A stretch of 46,361 bases of DNA from an uncultured Actinomycetes bacterium (GTDB lineage Bacteria > Actinomycetota > Thermoleophilia > UBA2241). The DNA lies in contig CAVWIH010000001.1 in assembly GCA_963755025.1 (NCBI GenBank), forward strand, positions 1 to 46,361. Reading direction: 5' to 3'. The notes under the pieces were generated by a model. It worked only from the letters and a program-made list of their open reading frames with translations. It was not told the origin of the DNA and ran no database searches. The position numbers and the translations under genes were made by a program. Below, piece by piece: positions 100-31,617 of the stretch (position 1 is the stretch's first letter; every line of letters starts with the position of its first letter).

Positions 100-990
100 C
101 TACCGCGCCGCCTCGGCGACCGCGTAGTCGATGAGGCGGCGGGCGACAGAGAGCCGGTGAGGCAGGGCCGGCAGCCGCCCCACCGGAAACCACTGCGCGT
201 CGGCGATCTCGCCCTCCTGGCAGTGGATCTCGCCGCCCGCGTACTCTGCCAGAAAGGCGACCATCAGCGAATGCGGGAAGGGCCAGCACTGGCTGTCGAA
301 GTAGCGCAGGCCGCCGACCCGCAGACCCACCTCCTCGTCGACCTCTCGGCGAATGCAGTCCTCGAGCGACTCCGAGGGCTCCACGAAGCCTGCCAGCGCG
401 CTGTAGATCGGCGACCCGCTGGGTCCCCATCGCCGCGCCGCGGTGGCGAGCAGTAACTCCCTCCCACCCGGGCCTTCTCGCGTCACCAGGACCATCATGG
501 CCGGCGCGAGTCTCGGGTAGTAGACCTGACCGCAGGCCGGACAGCGGCGCGCGCGTCCCCCGTCGCTCTCTTCAGTGGGCGTGGCGCAGGCGCCGCAGAA
601 GTGGTGAGTGCGCTCGAACGCGAGAACCTGTGCGGCGCGACCGGCCACCGCCACGAGTTCGTCGGGCAGGCGGTCAAAGAGCCGGCGCAGCGGCTCGAAC
701 GTGAACCCCGGCGGCGCATCTTCGTCATGCGCCCACGCCGCCCAGCAGGGAACGTCGCCCAGAAGGCCTATGCAGCGGGCGCCGTCGACGGGCACCGGCA
801 GCCCGTCGCCCAGCGGCACGGTGCAGTCGCCCGTCTGGCCCGACACGGCCAGCGTGAGGAGTTGCTCACCGGTCTGGCCCGACAGGGCCAGCGTAAGGAG
901 TTCCTCGCCGGCGAACACGAACCAGAGCCCTCCCGGCGGCCCCGGCGTGGGCGCAGACCACAGCGGCGTGAACGACTCAGGCAGCGACAT
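100..990 (-). CDS. nudC: NAD(H) diphosphatase, NudC family
   Basis: Zn ribbon CGAC...CPAC, YPRLAPAMMV, Nudix box GFVEPSESLEDCIRREVDEEVG, SQCWPFPHS motif; start at MSLPES preferred over 1032. Confidence 0.92.
   Translation of the reverse strand: MSLPESFTPLWSAPTPGPPGGLWFVFAGEELLTLALSGQTGEQLLTLAVSGQTGDCTVPLGDGLPVPVDGARCIGLLGDVPCWAAWAHDEDAPPGFTFEPLRRLFDRLPDELVAVAGRAAQVLAFERTHHFCGACATPTEESDGGRARRCPACGQVYYPRLAPAMMVLVTREGPGGRELLLATAARRWGPSGSPIYSALAGFVEPSESLEDCIRREVDEEVGLRVGGLRYFDSQCWPFPHSLMVAFLAEYAGGEIHCQEGEIADAQWFPVGRLPALPHRLSVARRLIDYAVAEAAR
827..906. repeat. 39-bp in-frame tandem duplication inside nudC (LLTLALSGQTGEQ / LLTLAVSGQTGD)
   Basis: Two near-identical units at 827-865 and 866-904. Confidence 0.9.
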
Positions 991-1160
991 CGACGATGAG
1001 TGAGACAAACCACACTCCGTTCCGGACGGCAAAGCTCGGCACTTTCGGGCCGGCTCAGCTTAAGCCATATCTCAGGAGGCACCGCATGTCAGCCCAACCC
1101 TCCCCGCCCGCCTGTGCGCGCCAACCTCTCCGGGTGCGCTGCGAGCCGCCTGCGCGGGAC

Positions 1161-2801
1161 TCAGTCTCCCCGCAAAGCGATCTTGAGATCGTTCACGTTG
1201 GTGTCGGTCGGGCCTGTGAACACGAGATCGCCGGCGCGGGCAAGGGCTTCGTAGGACTCGTGCGCGGCAAGTGCAGCGGCGCCGTCGCCGCCTGCCTCCA
1301 CGCCCCGCGCCGCCGGCGCCGCCGCGCCGCCTGCCGCCGCCGCCGCGCCGCGCGCGGCCCCGCCCCCCGCCAGCTTCGCCGCCGTGGCGTCGTCGACGGC
1401 GCCGCCGGCGGCGTCGGTGGGGCCGTCGCTGCCGTCGGAGTCGAGGCAGACGACGACGGCCGCCGGCCCGCCGGCCAACTCGAGCGCCGCGGCCAGGGCG
1501 GCCTCCTGGTTGGGTCCGCCGCGGCTCCGGGCCGGCCCAGCAGGTCCAACCGCGGCCCCGGCTCCCCGCTCGGCCGCGCCGCCGCGGCCCCGGGCGACGC
1601 CGCCGGTCAGCGTCACCGTGTTCTCGCCGCCCGCCACCAGGCAGGTGCGCGGCGCGCTGACCGCCAGGCGGCGCGCGAGGGCGAAGCCCGCGTCGCGCGC
1701 CTCGCCCTGCCAGTCCAGACCGAGCAACACGGCGGCGTAGCCCAACGCCTGCGCTTCGGCCACCGCCGCGGCGCACATGCGCGCCGCGTCGGCCATGACC
1801 CAGGTTCGGACGGCCGGCAAGTGTTTGGGCGTCTCCTCGTGCGGGTCGGCGCGCCGCAGCCGGGCGATGACGGCCGCGGGCAGCGCGTCCCACAGGGCGA
1901 AGCGATCGCAGACCGCCTGCGCCGCCGCCCAGGTCGACGAGTCGGGCACCGTGAGGTCGGTGACGTAGTCGAGGGGGTCGCCGACGACATCGCTGGCGGT
2001 GAAGTTCACGATCTCGCAGCCGCAGGCCGCGCCAAGGCGACCGCCCTTGATGGCAGAGAGGTGCTTGCGCACGTCGTTGATGCCGACGATGTCGGCGCCC
2101 GAGGCCAGCAGCAGGCGGTTCGTCTCGATCTTGTCGGCCAGGGAGATGCCCTTCGCGGGCACGACCGCCAGGGCGGAGCTGCCGCCGGTGACCAGCGCGA
2201 TGACGAGGTCGCCCGGCCGGGCCGCCTCGGCGATCGCTTGCAAGCGCAGGCCGCCGGCCAGGCTCGTCTCGTCCGGCACGGGGTGGCTCGCTTCAAGCAC
2301 CTCGACGTAGCGCAGCGCGTGGCCCTGCGCCTGGCCGCGCTTCACGACGACGACGGCGTCGGCAAACCGGGGGCCGAGGAGGCCGTCGAGCACCTCGGCC
2401 ATGCCCAGGGTCGCTTTGCCGGCGCCGAGCAGGAACAGGCGGCGGCCGGTCAGGTCGATCGCGGTGACGCCCTCGTCGCCGGGGCGCTCGGTGACATCGA
2501 TCGCGGTGACGCCGTCGTCGCCAGAACGCTCGATGACATCGATCGCGGTGACGCCCTCGTCGCCGCGGTGGTCGCCAGGGGGCTCGCCGCGCTCGCCGCG
2601 CTCGCCGCCGGAGTCGAGGCCGGCGATCGGCGTGCCGCGCACGAGCAGGCGGTCGCCCTCGACGCGCAGCGCGCCGGCGAGCGCCTCGGCCGGGTCGGCG
2701 GCGCGCAAGCCGGCGGCGGCGATCGCCAGCGCGTCGGCGCGCAGCGCCGGGCGTCCGTGTCCGGTCAGCTCCTCGTAGTTGGCAAAGCGCGCCGTCCCCA
2801 T
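1161..2801 (-). CDS. GckA/TtuD-type (DUF4147 + MOFRL) glycerate 2-kinase-like protein
   Basis: GAGKA, HPVPD, VTGGSSAL, RKHLSAIKGG, SDVVGD, GGE.TV, GGPNQE, SDGSDG, TGPTDTNVND motifs; start MGTARF. Confidence 0.88.
   Translation of the reverse strand: MGTARFANYEELTGHGRPALRADALAIAAAGLRAADPAEALAGALRVEGDRLLVRGTPIAGLDSGGERGERGEPPGDHRGDEGVTAIDVIERSGDDGVTAIDVTERPGDEGVTAIDLTGRRLFLLGAGKATLGMAEVLDGLLGPRFADAVVVVKRGQAQGHALRYVEVLEASHPVPDETSLAGGLRLQAIAEAARPGDLVIALVTGGSSALAVVPAKGISLADKIETNRLLLASGADIVGINDVRKHLSAIKGGRLGAACGCEIVNFTASDVVGDPLDYVTDLTVPDSSTWAAAQAVCDRFALWDALPAAVIARLRRADPHEETPKHLPAVRTWVMADAARMCAAAVAEAQALGYAAVLLGLDWQGEARDAGFALARRLAVSAPRTCLVAGGENTVTLTGGVARGRGGAAERGAGAAVGPAGPARSRGGPNQEAALAAALELAGGPAAVVVCLDSDGSDGPTDAAGGAVDDATAAKLAGGGAARGAAAAAGGAAAPAARGVEAGGDGAAALAAHESYEALARAGDLVFTGPTDTNVNDLKIALRGD
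2455..2565. repeat. 42-bp in-frame tandem repeat, about 2.7 copies (GDEGVTAIDV/L)
   Basis: Units start at 2455, 2497, 2539. Confidence 0.9.
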
Positions 2802-2836: not shown

Positions 2837-4231
2837 TCAGGCGCCGGGCGCGGCGGTCGCTCCCGTCACCGGCCGCCTGAAGTCGCGCCCCGCGTACACG
2901 GCCGAGCTGCCCAGCCACTCCTCGATCTGCAGCAGGCGGTTGTACTTGGCGGTGCGCTCGCCGCGCACCGGCGAGCCGGTCTTGATCTGGCCGCAGTTCA
3001 GGGCCACGACCAGGTCGGCGATGATCGGGTCTTCGGTCTCGCCCGAACGCTCGCTCACGCACACGCCGTAGCCGCCGCGAAAGGCGACGTCGGCGGCCTC
3101 GAAGGCCTCGGTGAGCGTGCCGATCTGGTTGACCTTCCACAGCAGGGCGTTGGCCGCACCCATGGCGATGCCCTTGCGCACCCGCGCAGGGTTGGTGACG
3201 AACAGGTCGTCGCCGACGATCTGCACACCGGTACGCGCCGCGCCGGCGGCCGCCGCGCCGGCGCCCGCCGCGGCCGTTCCGGTTCCCGCGCCGCCCGCCG
3301 CGGTCGCTCCGCCGACCTGCACCCCGGCGAGCTCGCTCGTGAGCGCGGCGAAGCCCTCCCAGTCGTCTTCGTCGAGCGGGTCTTCGATCGAGGCCACGCC
3401 GTAGTCGCGCACGAGCTCCTTATAGAGCTCGATCATCTGCTCGGTCGTGTAGGTACGGCCCGAGACGGCGTAGGTGCGGCTCTGCGGGTCCCAGAAGTGG
3501 GCGGCGGCGGCGTCGAGCGCGTAGACCACGTCGTCTTTGTAGCCGGCCGCCGCCACGCCCTCGTGCACCAGCGCCAGGGCTTCGTGCACGTCGACGATCG
3601 GCGTGGCGAAGTCGCCCTCGTCGCCGGTGTTGGCCGAGAGCTTGCCGTAGCGCGCGACCACGATCTCCTGCAGCGCCATGTGGGTCTCGCTGGCCATGCG
3701 CAGCGCCTCGCTGAAGCTGCGCGCGCCGACCGGCATCATGATGAACTCCTGAAAGGCGAGGTCATTCGACGTGAGGCGGCCGCCGCCCACCAGGTTGATC
3801 AGCGGCACCGGCAGCACGCACGAGTCGAAGCGCAGGTAGCGGTGCAGCGGCAGGCGGGCGGCGGCGGCGGCCACGCGGGCCACCGCGAGCGACACGCCGC
3901 AGAGCGCGTTGCCGCCCAGGCGGCTCTTGTCGGGTGTGCCGTCGAGCTCGCGCAAGAAGCTGTCGATGGCGCGCTGGTCTGAAGCGTCGCGGCCCGCAAG
4001 CGCCGGTCCGATTTCGTCGTTCACGTGGCCGACGGCGACCTGCACGTCGTAGCCGCCGTAGCGGGCGCCGCCGTCGCGCAGCTCGCGCGCCTCGCCGCTG
4101 CCGGTCGAGCGGCCGGCCGGCACGTCGGCGTGACCGGTCACCTCGCCACACGTGACTTCGACCTGGATGGTCGGAAAGCCGCGACAGTCGAGAATCGGAC
4201 GGGCGTGGACGGCGGTGATCGGTAGCGTCAC
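2837..4231 (-). CDS. Enolase-family protein with non-canonical active-site loops
   Basis: DCRGFPT, STG..EARELRDG, QEF, GDEG, IEDP, VGDDLFVTN, KVNQIG, RSGETED, QIKTG, KYNRLL; GTG start with GAGGAGG RBS. Confidence 0.92.
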   Translation of the reverse strand: MTLPITAVHARPILDCRGFPTIQVEVTCGEVTGHADVPAGRSTGSGEARELRDGGARYGGYDVQVAVGHVNDEIGPALAGRDASDQRAIDSFLRELDGTPDKSRLGGNALCGVSLAVARVAAAAARLPLHRYLRFDSCVLPVPLINLVGGGRLTSNDLAFQEFIMMPVGARSFSEALRMASETHMALQEIVVARYGKLSANTGDEGDFATPIVDVHEALALVHEGVAAAGYKDDVVYALDAAAAHFWDPQSRTYAVSGRTYTTEQMIELYKELVRDYGVASIEDPLDEDDWEGFAALTSELAGVQVGGATAAGGAGTGTAAAGAGAAAAGAARTGVQIVGDDLFVTNPARVRKGIAMGAANALLWKVNQIGTLTEAFEAADVAFRGGYGVCVSERSGETEDPIIADLVVALNCGQIKTGSPVRGERTAKYNRLLQIEEWLGSSAVYAGRDFRRPVTGATAAPGA

Positions 4232-4270: not shown

Positions 4271-5284
4271 TCAGTACCCTGCCTCGGGGTCGACCCGCCC
4301 GACGAACTCTGCGCCCCTTGCCAGGCGCGCCACGTTGTCGGCGATACGCGCGGCAAGCAGCGGCTTGGTCATCTCTTTGGTGTCGGCGGTGTGCGGCGTG
4401 ATGAGGCAGTTGGGAGCGCTCCACAGCGGGTGGCCGTCGGGCAGCGGCTCGGGGTCGGTCACGTCGAGGGCGGCGCCGCCCAGCCGCCCGGCGTGCAGGG
4501 CCTCGACCAGCGCGTCGGTGTCGACGATCTCGCCGCGCGCCACGTTGATAAGCCACGCCCCCGGCGCCATGGCGGCGAGCTCGGCGCGCCCGATCAGGCC
4601 GCGCGTGCGCGGCGTGAGCGCCAGGGCGAGCACGACCGCGCGGGCGCCCGTCAGAGCCTCGTCCAGGTGCCTGAGCCCGACCGTGCGCCAGGCCGCGGGC
4701 AACGGCTCGGGCCTGTGGCGCACGACGGTCACCTGCGCGCGGAAGGGCTCGAGCAGGCGGATGAACTCGCGCGCCACGCCGCCGGCGCCGAGCACGGTGA
4801 CCGGCTGGTCGAACAGGTTCACGCCGCCCGGTTCTCCCCAGGAGTGGGCCCGCGCGCGCTCGGGCAGCAGCCGCAGGCCGGCCAGCAGCAGCGCCAGCGC
4901 GTGCTCGGCGACCGGCTCGGCGTACGCCCCTTTGGCCGATGTCCACTGGCGTTCGCGGTCGACCACGCCGGCGGCCACGATGCGCTCGACGCCGGCCAGC
5001 GGCAGCTGCACCCACCAGATGCCGGGATGGCTGTCGAGGGTGGCGCGCAAGGCGTCGATGGCGCGCGAGTCGGTCCACACCAGACCGAGCGGCGATTCGT
5101 CGATGCCGACCGCCTGACCGCCGCCGCGCTCTATCGCCTGCCGCGCCCACTCCGACGATCGCGGGCCTACGGCGATGCGCGGTCCGGCGCCGGCGCCCGA
5201 GCCGCCGCTGCCGCCTGAGCCGCCGCTGCCGCTCTGGCCGCCGGCACCGCTCGACCCGTCGGCCCCGCGCGCCGCGGCGCTCAC
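4271..5284 (-). CDS. D-isomer-specific 2-hydroxyacid dehydrogenase with Gly/Ser-rich N-terminal extension
   Basis: [36 protein letters not shown]; GTG overlaps the SDR stop (GTGA). Confidence 0.88.
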
Positions 5285-6051
5285 GTGTGGCACAGCAGGC
5301 CGCCGTCGACCACCAGCGTCTGCCCGGTGATGTACGAGGCGTCGTTCGACGCCAGAAAGGCGACCGCGGCGGCCACCTCTTCGGGCGTGCCCTGGCGCTG
5401 CATGGGCACCGTGGCCTCGATCGCCGCGACGATGTCGGCGTCGGACATGTTGTCGTGCGCGAACTGCGGGTCGTTGAAGCCGGTGTCGACCCAGCCGGGG
5501 CACACCGAGTTCACGCGGATGCCCGACTTGGCGAAGTCGATGGCGAGCTGCCGCGTGAGGTTGACGACGGCCGCCTTCGACGCCGTGTAGGCGGTGAGCG
5601 CCGGCTCGCCGAGCAGACCGCTCACCGAGCCTGTGGTCACGATCGCGCCGCCGCCGCGCGCCTGGATGGCAGGCACTACCGCCTTGATCACCAGGAACAT
5701 GGCCGTCACGTTCACGACGAAGACGCGGCTCCACTCCTCGAGACTGACCTCGAGCACCGTGCCGGCGCTCAGTCGGCCGGCGTTGGAGTGCAGGATGTCG
5801 ATGCCGCCCGCCTCGTCGACCACGCGGGCCACGACCTCCGTCACCTCGTCGGGGCTCGTCACGTCGACGCGATAGGCGCGGCCGCGGCCGCCGGCCGCGT
5901 CGCACTCGCCGGCGACCTGCTGCGCCTCTTCGCCGCGCACGTCGACTATGGCCACGCTCGCGCCCTCGGCGGCAAAGCGCAGGGCGCTCGCCCGGCCTAT
6001 GCCGTGCGCGCCACCGGTCACCAGGACCGACTTTCCCTCAAACCGCGCCAT
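5281..6051 (-). CDS. Classical SDR oxidoreductase
   Basis: [34 protein letters not shown]. Confidence 0.95.
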
Positions 6052-6057
6052 CGGTCG

Positions 6058-7464
6058 TCACCTCGCTTCTTGGTCCGGCCACAGGGGCAACAGCGACCCC
6101 CGGTCGTCGAATCTCATCTCGACGCCGGCGTCGGTGGCAGCCACGACGAGGTCGTCGCGCCGCCGCGCCTCGGCGGCCAGCGGCTCGCTGACCCCAACGA
6201 CGTCGAGATGCTCGGTGTCTTCTATCCACATCAAGCGCGCACCGGCCGGCTCGCGCCGGCCGCACGAGGCCAGGGCGGCCTGTATGGCCAGGCGATCGCT
6301 GTCGAGCACCATGGGCAGCTTGGCGCGCTGCAGGTCAACGAGGCCGGCCGTCAGGGCGTTGGCGTAGATCGCGCCAAAGTCGAGCGCCCGCGCCAGGCGC
6401 GCCGAGACGAAGTCGACAAAGCCTATGCCGAGGCCGTTGCCCGACGAGGCCTCGGTCAGGCTGAGCGCGGCGATGCAGGCGATGCGCGGGCTCTCGGGCT
6501 CGGCCTCGCCGGTGATGTACAGGCGGCCGATCACGTTGGGGTCGACGCCTTCGCCGCTGATGTCCTTGCCGAGCCGCTGCACGACGAGCACATCGAGCTC
6601 GGTGAGCGGCAGGCGCGGCATCAGGGCCTTGGCCAGGTCCAGCAGGCGCTCCTCGGCTTCGCCGGCGATCTCGCCGGGGCGCAGCCCCTGCACGTGGGCG
6701 GTCTGGCCGACCTCGTTCTCGACCACGGCCAGGGCGCCCACGACCAGGCCGCGCGCCACGATCAGGCGCGCCGCCTCGCCGATGCCGGCGCGCAGGCCGG
6801 CCGGGCCGGCGGCGTGCAGCTCGGCGGCGCTCGCCAGGTGGCCCAAGCCCACCGCCAGCATCTTCGCCGGGCCGCTCTCGAGCGGACCGTGAACGTCGGT
6901 GTGCGCCTTGACGCGGCCGACCACGAACACCGCGCCGGCCCGCGCCGCGAGCCGGTCGACGTAGACGCGCGTGCCGCCGCCGGGGCCTACACCGCCGGCG
7001 CGCGCGCCACCGCCGGCACCAGCGCCGCCCGTCACACCCACCTCGTCGACGGCCATGGTCGCGCGTAACGGCGCGCCCACCGCCTGCTCGGTGATGCCCA
7101 GCTCGTCGAGCACCGCGAGCTGGCCGGCTTCGGTGCCGCCGCCGTGACTGCCCATGGCAGGCACGACGAAGGGCTCCCAGCCGGCGGCGCGCAGTTCGGC
7201 GACCACCGCTCTCAAGATGACGACGACGTTGGCGATGCCGCGGCTGCCGGCCGTCACGGCAATGGGGCCCGGCGTGCGCTCAGACTCGGCCAGCACGGCC
7301 GCCACTTCGCGGCGCGTGGCGGCCCGCACGTCGGCCAGCGGCGCGCCGACCGTCGTCCGGCGCACCGCCGTGAGGTGCGGCAGCGGCACGCTCCTGACGA
7401 ACGCGTTGAGGCCCGGCAGCGGCTGCGCCGCCACCGATGGATCCCCTGCCGTGTGACCGTTCAC
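6058..7464 (-). CDS. LarA-N (lactate-racemase domain, DUF2088-like) protein
   Basis: IAVTAGSRGIAN, PFVVPAMGSHGG, RVKAHT, KMLAVGLG, GKDISGEGVDPNVIGR; RBS GGAGAG before GTG. Confidence 0.8.
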   Translation of the reverse strand: MNGHTAGDPSVAAQPLPGLNAFVRSVPLPHLTAVRRTTVGAPLADVRAATRREVAAVLAESERTPGPIAVTAGSRGIANVVVILRAVVAELRAAGWEPFVVPAMGSHGGGTEAGQLAVLDELGITEQAVGAPLRATMAVDEVGVTGGAGAGGGARAGGVGPGGGTRVYVDRLAARAGAVFVVGRVKAHTDVHGPLESGPAKMLAVGLGHLASAAELHAAGPAGLRAGIGEAARLIVARGLVVGALAVVENEVGQTAHVQGLRPGEIAGEAEERLLDLAKALMPRLPLTELDVLVVQRLGKDISGEGVDPNVIGRLYITGEAEPESPRIACIAALSLTEASSGNGLGIGFVDFVSARLARALDFGAIYANALTAGLVDLQRAKLPMVLDSDRLAIQAALASCGRREPAGARLMWIEDTEHLDVVGVSEPLAAEARRRDDLVVAATDAGVEMRFDDRGSLLPLWPDQEAR

Positions 7465-7573: not shown

Positions 7574-9058
7574 CTACGCGACGCGGTCGCGCTGCGATTC
7601 CTCGCGCCACGAGTCGGCCGACGTGGGCCGGCGCCGCTCCGCGATGTCGGCGAAGAAGGGCGACGACCTCGCCGTCTGGCGGATGATGAAGCCCAGCAGG
7701 TACGAGATCAGCACGCCCGCCACGGCCACCCAGGCCACCGGCGCCGACTGTGTGGTCAGGCCGTAGAAGAAGATGGCGCCCATGAACAGGCCGCCGATCA
7801 GGGGCAGCGCGCCGACCAGCACGGCCGAGCTCAGGTTGCCGCGCAGCTCGGCGCGGTAGAACCACACGCTGCTCAGCGCGATGACGAAGTACATGAACAG
7901 GCCGAGCATGCCGTCGGCGCTGATCACGTAGCCGATGGCCTTCGTCGCCGACGAGTTCGCCAGGTAGAAGATCAGCACGATGGGCGGGATGGCCGCCAGG
8001 ATGAGCAGCCCGAGCCAGGGGGTCTGGTGCACGCGGCTCATCCTGCCCCAGAGACGGGGGATCAGGCGGTCGCGAGCCATCGCGTAGAGCACCCGGCTGG
8101 GTTCGACCATCTGGATCTGGCTCGTGCCCAGCACGGCGATCAGCACCGCCAGCGGCAGCGCGCGGCCCCAGAAGCCGGGAACCAGCAGCGTGCCGGCGTA
8201 GCCCAGCACGTCCGAGCCGTGAGCCTGCACGGTGGACTGGCTCGCGATGCCCTGGAAGACCATGATGAGGAACGTGTACCAGAGCGTCAGAAAGCCGGTG
8301 CCCAGCATCATCGCGCGGCCCGGGTTGAGCTTGCGTTTGGTCGACTCCTCGCCCAGGGTGGCGGTCGCCTCCCAGCCCAGGTAGAGGAAGCCGCAGACGA
8401 CGGCCGCCTCGGTCAGGCCCTTGAAGCCGCCGATGCCGCCCAGCGAGTGCGAGATCGAGAAGTCGGAGATGCCGGGCAGCGAAGCGCCCCCGGCATGAGA
8501 CGCCTCGTGGATCAGGGCGAGCACGACGAACGAGATGACGGCGGCGTACTCGATCACCACGAAGGTCATCTGCAGCCACACCGTCGGCCTGATGCCGCGG
8601 ATGGCGAGCCAGACCAGCACGCCCATGATGGCGGTCGCGATGATCCAGGTGACCGGCTTCGAGAACGTGCTCGTCGGGGCGATGATGAACAGCAGGTAGA
8701 CGCCCGCCAGCGTGATGTTGCCCACGTTGGCGAGCGTGCTGGTGATGGCGTTGAGTAGCCCCGTGCCGATGCCGATGGCCGGCGCGACCGCTTCGCTGAC
8801 CCACACGTACGGGGCGCCGGCGTGAGCGCGCCAACGGTTCAGGTTGGCGTAGCCGACCGACACGAAGAACATGGCGATGCCGACCACCAGCACCGCAAGC
8901 GGCGAGGTGTGCCCGGCAAAGCTCAACAGGATGGCGAGCGTGAAGGCGACGCTGCTCGAGGGCGCTACGTTGGCGATCGAGACGATGAAATCGCCCCAGA
9001 GGCTGACGGCGTCTGCCTTCAGGCCCACTTCCTTGCTGCTACCAGTCTGCATAGACAT
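7574..9058 (-). CDS. APC-family amino acid/amine permease
   Basis: About 12 hydrophobic segments, AGAPYVW, YLGWEATATLGEE, SRVLYAMARD; GGAGAAGGAG RBS before MSMQT. Confidence 0.9.
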   Translation of the reverse strand: MSMQTGSSKEVGLKADAVSLWGDFIVSIANVAPSSSVAFTLAILLSFAGHTSPLAVLVVGIAMFFVSVGYANLNRWRAHAGAPYVWVSEAVAPAIGIGTGLLNAITSTLANVGNITLAGVYLLFIIAPTSTFSKPVTWIIATAIMGVLVWLAIRGIRPTVWLQMTFVVIEYAAVISFVVLALIHEASHAGGASLPGISDFSISHSLGGIGGFKGLTEAAVVCGFLYLGWEATATLGEESTKRKLNPGRAMMLGTGFLTLWYTFLIMVFQGIASQSTVQAHGSDVLGYAGTLLVPGFWGRALPLAVLIAVLGTSQIQMVEPSRVLYAMARDRLIPRLWGRMSRVHQTPWLGLLILAAIPPIVLIFYLANSSATKAIGYVISADGMLGLFMYFVIALSSVWFYRAELRGNLSSAVLVGALPLIGGLFMGAIFFYGLTTQSAPVAWVAVAGVLISYLLGFIIRQTARSSPFFADIAERRRPTSADSWREESQRDRVA

Positions 9059-9146
9059 GGCGTGCGCTCCTTCTCCCAAGCCCTAAGGCGACCAGAAACG
9101 CGGACGGAGACGGGAAGTGAGTCGCCTCCATCTCTGACAGAAGAAG

Positions 9147-29792: not shown

Positions 29793-30644
29793 TCAACGCT
29801 TGTCCCAGCTCACCATGAAGCTCGAGCCCCCGGCCGACAGCGGCGAGGCGCCGGCCTGGCGGCGCCCGTCGACGAGCATGTTCACCCTGCTCCAGGGCAG
29901 CGCACCGAGAGGGCGGCCGTTCACGCGCACGTGCGTGAACCGCACCATGCCGAAGTCGGCGAGCGGCACCTGGCCGCTGCTCGCCGACGGCGCCTCGGTC
30001 ACCACTTCGGCCGACGAGAGCGTGGCTGCGTGGTCGACCTGCCTTGTCGCGAAGCGTTGCCCGTTGGTGGCGTCGCGCAGGCTCAGCGTGAAGGCGCCGC
30101 GACCGTCGCTTGCGACCGTCGCCACGACCACGTCGCCCGGGGCGACCGCCATGGGCGCGTCGACCGCGGGACCGGGCAGCATCTCCCACCACACGCCGTA
30201 GCGCGGCCCGAACCGGGTGAGGACGCTGGTCGTACCGATCTGCTGCAGGCTGTGGCTGTCGCGACCGTCGAGCCCCACCCAGAAGCTCGCGGCGGCGCCC
30301 GGACGCGTGGTGTCGCGGGCGGCCGGCACCACCCACGTCGCCGTGATGCTGGTGAAGCGACCGTGGGCGACGAGGTACCCGGCCCAGTTCAGCGACTCCT
30401 CGGTGTCGCCGGCGCCGCCGAAGAGCGTCGCCGCGCCGCTGCGCGCCAGTCCGAGCATCATGGCCGCCGCGAGCGCGACGACGAGCACCAGACCGACGAG
30501 CACCGGCCACAGGGGCAGGCGCGCGAGCACCGGGAGCGGTGCATCGGCCCCGCCACCCGCGGCCGGGGAGGGGTCACTCGAGACGGGACCGGCGGGAACG
30601 GCGTCGGCGCCCTCGAGAGTCGGCTCGTGACCTTGGTCGGACAT
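29793..30644 (-). CDS. Membrane-anchored G1-family (eqolisin) glutamic peptidase, copy 1
   Basis: SLNWAGY, WVVP, WVGLDG, QQIGT, SAEVVTEAP; N-terminal TM helix. Confidence 0.85.
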   Translation of the reverse strand: MSDQGHEPTLEGADAVPAGPVSSDPSPAAGGGADAPLPVLARLPLWPVLVGLVLVVALAAAMMLGLARSGAATLFGGAGDTEESLNWAGYLVAHGRFTSITATWVVPAARDTTRPGAAASFWVGLDGRDSHSLQQIGTTSVLTRFGPRYGVWWEMLPGPAVDAPMAVAPGDVVVATVASDGRGAFTLSLRDATNGQRFATRQVDHAATLSSAEVVTEAPSASSGQVPLADFGMVRFTHVRVNGRPLGALPWSRVNMLVDGRRQAGASPLSAGGSSFMVSWDKR

Positions 30645-30711
30645 GTCACAGACTGTTCCCGGCGCCGCAGAGGCGGACACCGGCGGCCGCTGGAGGGCGG
30701 CGAGGCCCCCG

Positions 30712-31617
30712 CTACTCGTGCTTCCAGGTCACCGAGAAGGTGGCGGCGTTGCGCGCCAGCGGCGAGGTGACCGCCTGCGGCGTGCTGTCGGAGCTCATGC
30801 TGAGCCGGTCCCAGTTGAAGGTGCCGATGGGGCGTCCGTTGACCCGGGCGTTGGTGAAGGTCAGGGTGCCGAAGTTCGGCAGCGGCGAGGGGCCCGACAC
30901 GGTGGCGGGCGCCTCGGCGACCACCTCGGCGGTCACGAGCTCGGCGCCGGGGCTGGGCTGCAGCGTGGAGTAAGCCGCGTGGGTCCTGTTGTTCCTGATG
31001 AACAGGGTGAAGTTGCCGTCGCCGTTGGTGGTGACGCTGGCCGTGACCGAGTCGCCCGGGCTCAGGGCCATGCGCACGTAGACCGGCGCCTTGGGCACGA
31101 CCTCGAACCAGACCTCGTAGGCGGGGCTGCCGCCGAGCTCGCCGCTCAGCGTGCCGATCTGTTCGAGGTTGCGCGTGCCGCGGCCGTCGATGCCGACCCA
31201 CACGGCGGCGACCTCGGTGGGCTGCGTGCCGGCCTTGACGGCGGGCACCACCCACGAGGCGCTCACGCTGGTGAAGCGCCCGTGCGAGGCCACGTAGCCG
31301 GCCCAGTTGCTCGAGGTCTCGAGCGCGCCCTGGGCGAGCCGCGGCGTGGCGGCGTTGCTGTGGGCGACGCCCAGGCCAAGGCTCACGAACACGCTGATCG
31401 CGGCGGGCGTGCACAGGGCGATGATGACGATGAGCGGCAGCGGTCCGACCGGGTGCAGGAGCGAGACAAAGCGTAGCCGCCTGAGGCTACGATAGGCTCG
31501 CGCAAGGCGGCCGGTGTGCGCCAGGCCGCCGGCGATCTGCTCGCCGGGCGAAACCAGCGCGCCGAGTTCGTGCAGCCCGCGGGAAGCCGAGTCAGGCTCG
31601 ACTGCTTGGTCGTGCAT
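30712..31617 (-). CDS. Membrane-anchored G1-family glutamic peptidase, copy 2
   Basis: SSNWAGY, WVVP, WVGIDG, EQIGT, TAEVVAEAP. Confidence 0.85.
   Translation of the reverse strand: MHDQAVEPDSASRGLHELGALVSPGEQIAGGLAHTGRLARAYRSLRRLRFVSLLHPVGPLPLIVIIALCTPAAISVFVSLGLGVAHSNAATPRLAQGALETSSNWAGYVASHGRFTSVSASWVVPAVKAGTQPTEVAAVWVGIDGRGTRNLEQIGTLSGELGGSPAYEVWFEVVPKAPVYVRMALSPGDSVTASVTTNGDGNFTLFIRNNRTHAAYSTLQPSPGAELVTAEVVAEAPATVSGPSPLPNFGTLTFTNARVNGRPIGTFNWDRLSMSSDSTPQAVTSPLARNAATFSVTWKHE

Follow-up and report, generated by a model that had tools for sequence, protein, structure and literature searches.

A glutamate-type enolase variant and its partner MOFRL kinase: a predicted route from 2-phospho-isoserine to phosphoenolpyruvate

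We describe here an enolase variant that, together with its co-evolved kinase, is a real and undescribed functional variant of enolase, and for which a reaction can be predicted. The kinase would make 2-phospho-isoserine or an N-substituted form of it, and the enolase variant would then eliminate ammonia or an amine to give phosphoenolpyruvate (PEP). Judged from sequence, this assignment has about an even chance of being right. A full-text literature search, in which few subscription journals were included, returned no description of the clade or of an isoserine kinase/lyase route.

The paralogue and its active site

The gene lies in a window of 46,361 nucleotides (the whole stretch of DNA analysed) from an uncultured Actinomycetes bacterium of the Thermoleophilia. 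It belongs to a same-strand run in the order APC permease, nickel-pincer isomerase of group 22, short-chain dehydrogenase/reductase (SDR), D-2-hydroxyacid dehydrogenase, enolase paralogue, MOFRL kinase, and NudC (Table 1).

Table 1. Genes of the run that contains the enolase paralogue, with positions in the window
Feature	Position	Strand	Basis or remark
NudC-like NADH pyrophosphatase, downstream	100..1032	(-)	NF001299
Class II (MOFRL/DUF4147) glycerate-2-kinase-type enzyme, clade-linked subtype	1161..2801	(-)	PF13660 + PF05161, loop signature
Enolase paralogue, His373→Glu clade, 464 aa; proposed 2-phospho-isoserine (amine)-lyase	2837..4231	(-)	function inferred
D-isomer-specific 2-hydroxyacid dehydrogenase	4271..5230	(-)	PF02826; start uncertain, maybe nearer 5180
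Short-chain dehydrogenase/reductase	5281..6051	(-)	family profile matches
Nickel-pincer (LarA superfamily) isomerase, group 22	6058..7464	(-)	NF052515, 412.6 bits vs cut-off 400
APC-family amino acid/polyamine permease, first gene of run	7574..9079	(-)	PF13520

The open reading frame is an intact enolase paralogue under purifying selection. Its start codon is GTG, a few bases 5′ of which lies a strong Shine-Dalgarno sequence (GAGGAGG), and its dN/dS values against the close relatives L106, L107, and L108 were 0.21, 0.10, and 0.21, respectively. Since the frame is intact, dN/dS is this low, and the catalytic core is invariant, decay to a pseudogene was ruled out. A viral origin was also rejected, as both matches on viral contigs were canonical enolases. 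Scanning for promoters and terminators yielded 0 promoters and 2 terminators, against 2.0 terminators expected.

The product matches PF03952 and PF00113 (the enolase N-domain and barrel) and scores 485.9 with TIGR01060, the NCBIfam eno equivalog, whose cut-off is 300. Databases label the protein an enolase because this cut-off is passed. Besides Enolase_N and Enolase_C, Pfam gave only a sub-threshold MR_MLE_C match, and the MAL family was not matched. The AlphaFold model (pLDDT 86) superposes on enolases with a TM score of 0.87 and an rmsd of 1.2 to 2.6 Å in Foldseek, the nearest solved structure being MJ0232 of Methanocaldococcus jannaschii (PDB 2PA6; TM 0.87, 52% identity). A Gly/Ala-rich insert occupies approximately residues 302 to 334, with pLDDT below 50 at 308 to 333; in the DNA this low-complexity stretch lies at about 3230-3330. 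Repeats also occur in the two genes downstream, namely an in-frame 42-bp unit (2.6 copies) in the kinase at 2455-2565 and a 39-bp repeat in NudC at 810-911.

The first-pass annotation had listed five altered enolase motifs, and all five are present when the paralogue is set against the canonical enolase of its own genome (contig C20), MJ0232, and the Mycobacterium tuberculosis enolase. The changed residues are C16, R41, L153, D207, W365, and E394, which we take to be S13, A38, H159, G213, L344, and H373 in yeast numbering, respectively. Its claim that the metal, phosphate, and base machinery is intact also held. The Mg ligands Asp246/Glu295/Asp320 and loop-1 Ser39 are kept as D240, E283, D341, and S42; the base Lys345, the acid Glu211, Glu168, Lys396, and the Arg374/Ser375 phosphate clamp are kept as K366, E205, E162, K417, R395, and S396; and Q161 is likewise unchanged. 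The two lost histidines are His373, the C3 water site (Glu394 here; His in 54/54 canonical copies fetched), and loop-2 His159 (Leu153 here; His in 52/54 canonical copies, with 2 gaps).

In Synechococcus elongatus enolase, His367 and Glu168 form hydrogen bonds to a water that lies 3.5 Å from C3 of PEP, and the two residues that follow His367, Arg368 and Ser369, bind the phosphate (PMC8996150). For the loop-2 His, contacts with the phosphate and with the hydroxyl of 2-phosphoglycerate (2-PG) are described (PMC10619443). The exchange of His373 for Glu would therefore place a third carboxylate at the C3 leaving-group site, leaving recognition of C1, C2, and the phosphate untouched. The annotated change of the pocket around C3 is supported in that this key substitution lies at the C3 site. 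A changed stereochemistry at C2, also suggested earlier, is disfavoured by the unaltered base Lys and by the racemases that occur with the gene.

A cross-phylum clade and its kinase

The best 120 homologues were taken from 8000 candidates sharing the most words with the query. All 120 (58 to 100% identity) carry Glu at the His373 position and Trp before the base Lys, and 117 have Arg at Ala38 (1 Lys, 2 gaps). The His159 position is Leu in 113 and His in 7. Barring one misaligned row, the Mg ligands, Lys345, Glu211, Glu168, Arg374, Ser375, and Lys396 are unchanged throughout this set. A second set came from loci found in genome and metagenome scans, both of which retained the best 80 loci. It comprises 115 distinct Glu-type ORFs, a few of them differing only in the start called for one gene, and near-copies occur among the loci; here the loop-2 residue is His in 32, Leu in 80, and a gap in 3. 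Thus, the statement that both active-site histidines are replaced is true of this member, but the family trait is His373→Glu only.

Do the substitutions define a clade? His373→Glu does, usually with Ala38→Arg, while loss of His159 and GDEGD are traits of subclades. Among the Glu-type ORFs from the loci, GDEGD was found only with N149G (18 with G/D versus 92 with N/G). Asp207 occurs in 33 of 34 G149 proteins, and one G149 protein among the top 120 lacks it. As a pocket change at the level of the family, GDEGD was accordingly ruled out; it marks one subclade, that of this member, and by its coupling to N149G is more likely a local structural swap than a remodelling of the pocket.

In a quick IQ-TREE tree built from 89 rows (34 of Glu type, hand-picked from the clade, 51 canonical, 4 others; trait columns left in), the Glu-type rows form a single branch (SH-aLRT 95) nested within archaeal-type enolases. 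Their hosts include Thermoleophilia, Solirubrobacterales, Anaerolineae, Dehalococcoidia, Desulfobacteraceae, Atribacterota, Clostridia, and Proteobacteria. By these sequence comparisons, the clade is a single cross-phylum group defined by His373→Glu. One of its deepest-branching members (L165:7992-9257) keeps His159, has Leu at Ala38, and lies with no kinase within 8 kb. At another locus (L098:8866-13813) the clade enolase and the kinase are in pieces beside an MttB-type gene, probably as a decaying copy.

The partner kinase gene of the window starts 35 bp past the stop of the enolase paralogue. Its product scores below the NCBIfam glycerate 2-kinase cut-offs, and in its ASGP loop T-D replaces S-G. 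A same-strand MOFRL kinase lies within 2.5 kb at 97/114 clade loci versus 0/54 canonical loci; of the remaining clade loci, 12 end too soon to judge and 5 have no kinase. Of the linked kinases, 79/80 carry T at the first of these positions, and the next residue is D in 61, G in 12, and C in 7. In contrast, S-G is found in 16/16 unlinked kinases, including the copy on contig C36 of the source genome, which is its canonical S-G-type MOFRL kinase, and in both solved relatives (1X3L and 2B8N). In two genomes the clade enolase stands without a kinase next to it, and a T-type kinase is encoded elsewhere.

The paralogue is an extra copy in its genome rather than the only enolase. A tblastn search of the source genome (84% complete) found exactly one other enolase, the C20 copy, which is 45% identical and has all canonical motifs. 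A second enolase match was also present in 11/11 family genomes of at least 90% completeness with a high-scoring clade gene and in 8/9 distant genomes, the motifs of the second enolase having been checked in the source genome only. Taken at the level of sequence, the enolase variant and its kinase are an accessory, co-specialised module and not a replacement.

Neighbouring genes and the predicted reaction

Locus L107 repeats the gene order of the window without NudC and contains a 75% identical partial copy of the permease. The 2-hydroxyacid dehydrogenase has 70 to 77% identical copies in 9 other clade loci, and the SDR has 74 to 82% identical copies in L107, L168, L169, L174, and L211; together, these two enzymes possibly form a two-step stereo-inversion module. 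The cofactor genes LarC (PF01969) and LarE-type (TIGR00268) are present in the source genome. NudC had no copy in the other fetched loci at E ≤ 1e-25 and is probably not part of the pathway. The sole hint of nitrogen in the window is the amino-acid permease. Elsewhere in the window, two tandem peptidase A4 (glutamic protease) genes lie at 29796-31617.

Other clade loci offer more clues to the substrate. Their genes were called with a simple in-house caller, and cluster representatives and selected singletons, not every ORF, were annotated. LarA-type racemases occur in 25/120 loci and group-22 isomerases in 5/120, and two of the neighbouring racemases pass the lactate-racemase cut-off. Dihydropyrimidinase and PreA lie near the clade enolase in L016, L027, L034, and L090; an agmatinase-like neighbour is found in L029, and amidinotransferase-like ones in L019 (ESM Atlas) and L027 (clustering). 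Locus L149 carries a class III transaminase with a malonate-semialdehyde dehydrogenase, and L150 carries MtmB-like (methylamine-type) methyltransferases with a corrinoid protein. Polyamine-type ABC importers, a LysA-like decarboxylase, M20 deacylases, hydantoinase-like proteins, and TynB-like cyclodeaminase homologues are further neighbours, and in Paraburkholderia caribensis the locus has a D-amino acid dehydrogenase with RidA and a hydroxypyruvate reductase. These neighbours recur in separate lineages. Known members of several such families release beta-alanine-type amines, and isoserine is the 2-hydroxy analogue of β-alanine. Amine-type families lie within 6 kb at 32/59 clade loci with enough flank versus 1/41 canonical loci, a descriptive tally that overstates the contrast, since the family list came from the same loci, kin were counted separately, and housekeeping loci served as the control.

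Solved-structure searches with a neighbouring transaminase, decarboxylase, and UxaA-like protein gave no clue to the substrate, the nearest structure to the transaminase being 5YKR, a "probable aminotransferase"; the SDR had no match at 1e-48. On a plasmid (L208, NZ_CP022016.1, 8989-16400), the clade enolase and a T-D kinase share one run with genes for an MFS transporter, a D-Ala-D-Ala ligase homologue, GntR, pyruvate kinase, and a GNAT acetyltransferase. A pyruvate kinase in a clade cluster fits PEP as the product. A separate same-strand run of the source genome (L187 = G000:C16:22000-40000) encodes an MttB-type methyltransferase, two corrinoid proteins, a class III aminotransferase, GAPDH and PGK paralogues, a LarA racemase, and a malic enzyme; it looks like a path from carnitine-like amine demethylation over malate semialdehyde and D-malate to the racemase and malic enzyme.

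The sequence changes, the clade, the kinase pairing and signature, and the neighbouring families form the basis of the proposed route. From them we infer what the substrate and leaving group are, in which direction the reaction runs, and what Glu394 and Arg41 do. The enolase variant would be the last step in a dedicated catabolism of a 3-amino-2-hydroxy acid, the simplest being isoserine (3-amino-2-hydroxypropionate) or an N-substituted form. The permease would bring in the acid or a precursor, and the D configuration would be reached via the nickel-pincer racemase and/or the SDR with the D-2-hydroxyacid dehydrogenase. The specialised MOFRL kinase would then phosphorylate the C2 hydroxyl. The resulting 2-phospho acid would be bound with two Mg2+, and Lys366 would take the C2 proton as in enolase, but the C3 substituent would leave as ammonia or amine and not as water, yielding PEP. 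The acidic cluster Glu162/Glu205/Glu394 would hold the C3 group, with Glu394 in place of the water-binding His, and Arg41 may substitute at the phosphate for the lost loop-2 His. The replacement of a neutral by an acidic residue where the leaving group sits is in keeping with a cationic C3 group. Going by the equilibria of aspartase, fumarase, and enolase, C-N cleavage should be favourable at cellular concentrations.

Several observations count against the amine route. At 27/59 loci, amine-type families are absent. Four Dehalococcoidia-like loci (L127, L132, L135, and L160) have 3 to 4 tandem UxaA/GarD-family paralogues (PF04295/PF20629, ~395 aa) directly upstream of the clade enolase, together with a short ORF, SDRs, an epimerase, and a phosphotriesterase-like hydrolase, and look more like sugar-acid or sulfonate catabolism. 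Locus L040 has an HpcH-type aldolase. In addition, a transaminase acting earlier in the pathway could remove the nitrogen and leave plain glycerate.

A sister family of enolase variants (L102:9949-11214, L103, L104; L209, L210) is paired with a MOFRL kinase and a TynB-like cyclodeaminase homologue. It occupies the same kinase/racemase/decarboxylase gene set as the clade enolase and is widespread, including in cultured rhizobia. Its position beside the clade in the quick tree depends on a long branch. Glu211→Ser and His373→Gly are found in 120/120 of its homologues, with the base and metal ligands kept, and His159→Tyr and Gln167→Asn are further changes. The missing general acid suggests a leaving group that needs none, and the family would handle bulkier C3 substituents. 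A third enolase-like gene, strongly divergent in sequence (L105:9007-10008), has as its neighbours a MOFRL kinase, a mandelate-racemase-family gene, and a molybdenum hydroxylase set.

Alternative readings and known systems

The same logic of kinase and elimination could serve another substituted 2-hydroxy acid, which we consider unlikely. Such a substrate might have four or more carbons, carry a distal amine, and lose water (4-amino-2,3-dihydroxybutyrate and a 4-deoxytetronate are examples), or it might bear a C3 thioether or sulfonate (3-sulfolactate, releasing sulfite); substrates may differ among subclades. Gene contexts do vary by subclade, and Arg41 could bind an extra anion. The ~395-aa PF04295/PF20629 protein with a short ORF, as seen in the Dehalococcoidia-like loci, has the architecture known for the sulfolactate sulfo-lyase SuyAB. 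However, Glu394 is invariant across contexts, which argues for one chemistry, and it would repel a sulfonate; His→Glu also frees little space. The addition of sulfite to PEP by ComA is reportedly practically irreversible, which tells against the sulfonate, and, the SuyAB-like architecture aside, the annotated ORFs included no sulfite-handling or other sulfonate-catabolic neighbours. For the deoxy acids, LarA enzymes are reported to epimerise 4-deoxytetronates (PMC11770544).

A private lower glycolysis is an equally unlikely reading. Here, amines or hydroxy acids would be converted to D/L-glycerate, racemised, and passed through 2-phosphoglycerate to PEP, with Glu394 and Arg41 tolerated or compensating. 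The TIGR01060 score and the retention of Lys366, Glu205, and Glu162 are in line with it, as are the transaminases, 2-hydroxyacid dehydrogenases, and GhrA-like reductase nearby. Class II kinases make 2-PG (PMC2063504), and the lactate racemase group acts on glycerate, isoserine being absent from the main text of that report (PMC11770544). In contrast, this reading leaves unexplained both the matching kinase subtype and a C3-site Glu that is invariant across phyla where every canonical copy has His. Moreover, a second enolase is nearly always present, an S-G kinase was also present in 3/4 distant genomes tested, and the sister family without a general acid sits in the same gene set. Water elimination is chemically possible, Glu205 being kept; retained dehydratase activity, as the first-pass annotation had it, nevertheless appears less likely than amine elimination on the sequence evidence.

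We regard as improbable an enolase for L-2-phosphoglycerate with the acid and base roles swapped (Glu205 as base, Glu394 as acid). In its favour, L-glycerate is a substrate of class II kinases at 13 to 34% (PMC2063504), and the new Glu adjoins C3; against it, the base Lys366 is invariant, and the LarA-type racemases and group-22 isomerases would leave an enolase specific for the L form without a purpose. A copy that is inactive or moonlights (as a scaffold or metabolite sensor), for which the loss of both histidines in this member and the low-complexity insert might speak, is very improbable given the residues for Mg, base, acid, and phosphate that are invariant in the clade, the low dN/dS, and the kinase pairing.

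The predicted amine-lyase can be compared with four known systems. With canonical enolase (EC 4.2.1.11; MJ0232) it has in common the fold, the Mg ligands, the Lys base, the Glu pair, the Arg/Ser phosphate clamp, and TIGR01060. It differs in His373→Glu, Ala38→Arg, Ser13→Cys, Trp before the base Lys, and His159→Leu, and in being an accessory copy coupled to a distinct MOFRL kinase subtype. 3-Methylaspartate ammonia-lyase, also of the enolase superfamily, uses Mg-assisted enolate formation followed by ammonia elimination and is a superfamily precedent for the proposed chemistry, although it belongs to another subgroup and acts on a dicarboxylate substrate without phosphate. The branch from glycerate over 2-PG to PEP in the non-phosphorylative Entner-Doudoroff pathway (PMC2063504) likewise uses a MOFRL-type kinase and then enolase, with PEP as the probable shared product; in contrast, both window enzymes have clade-specific changes, and canonical versions of both are already in the genome. 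Catabolism of HAEP, the phosphonate analogue of isoserine, by the ammonia-lyase PbfA and the racemase PbfF shares the logic of a racemase and an ammonia-lyase acting on a vicinal amino-hydroxy compound (PMC8154272; PMC12366243). Unlike the enzyme proposed here, PbfA depends on PLP, works without a kinase, and does not act on isoserine (PMC8154272).

Enolase proper has been treated as a one-reaction family, and the clade genes pass the standard model and are thus annotated as glycolytic. The broader proposal is an undescribed cross-phylum route of kinase and "enolase", in which a C-N lyase of the enolase subgroup would convert 2-phospho-isoserine or its N-substituted forms to PEP and ammonia or amine, as a common sink for the breakdown of hydroxylated pyrimidine, guanidino, polyamine, and diamino-acid compounds. 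We advance this tentatively from sequence, with a little less than an even chance. The hypothesis is cheaply testable, as D,L-isoserine is commercially available and the kinase would make the substrate; furthermore, the cultured soil bacterium Paraburkholderia caribensis MWAP64 carries the enolase-variant/kinase pair under the accessions WP_060610894.1 and WP_060610896.1. If true, one or two active-site changes give enolase a new reaction, thousands of "enolase" genes could be misannotated, and a widespread catabolic route for nitrogen compounds in soil, sediment, and marine bacteria would have been masked by annotation.
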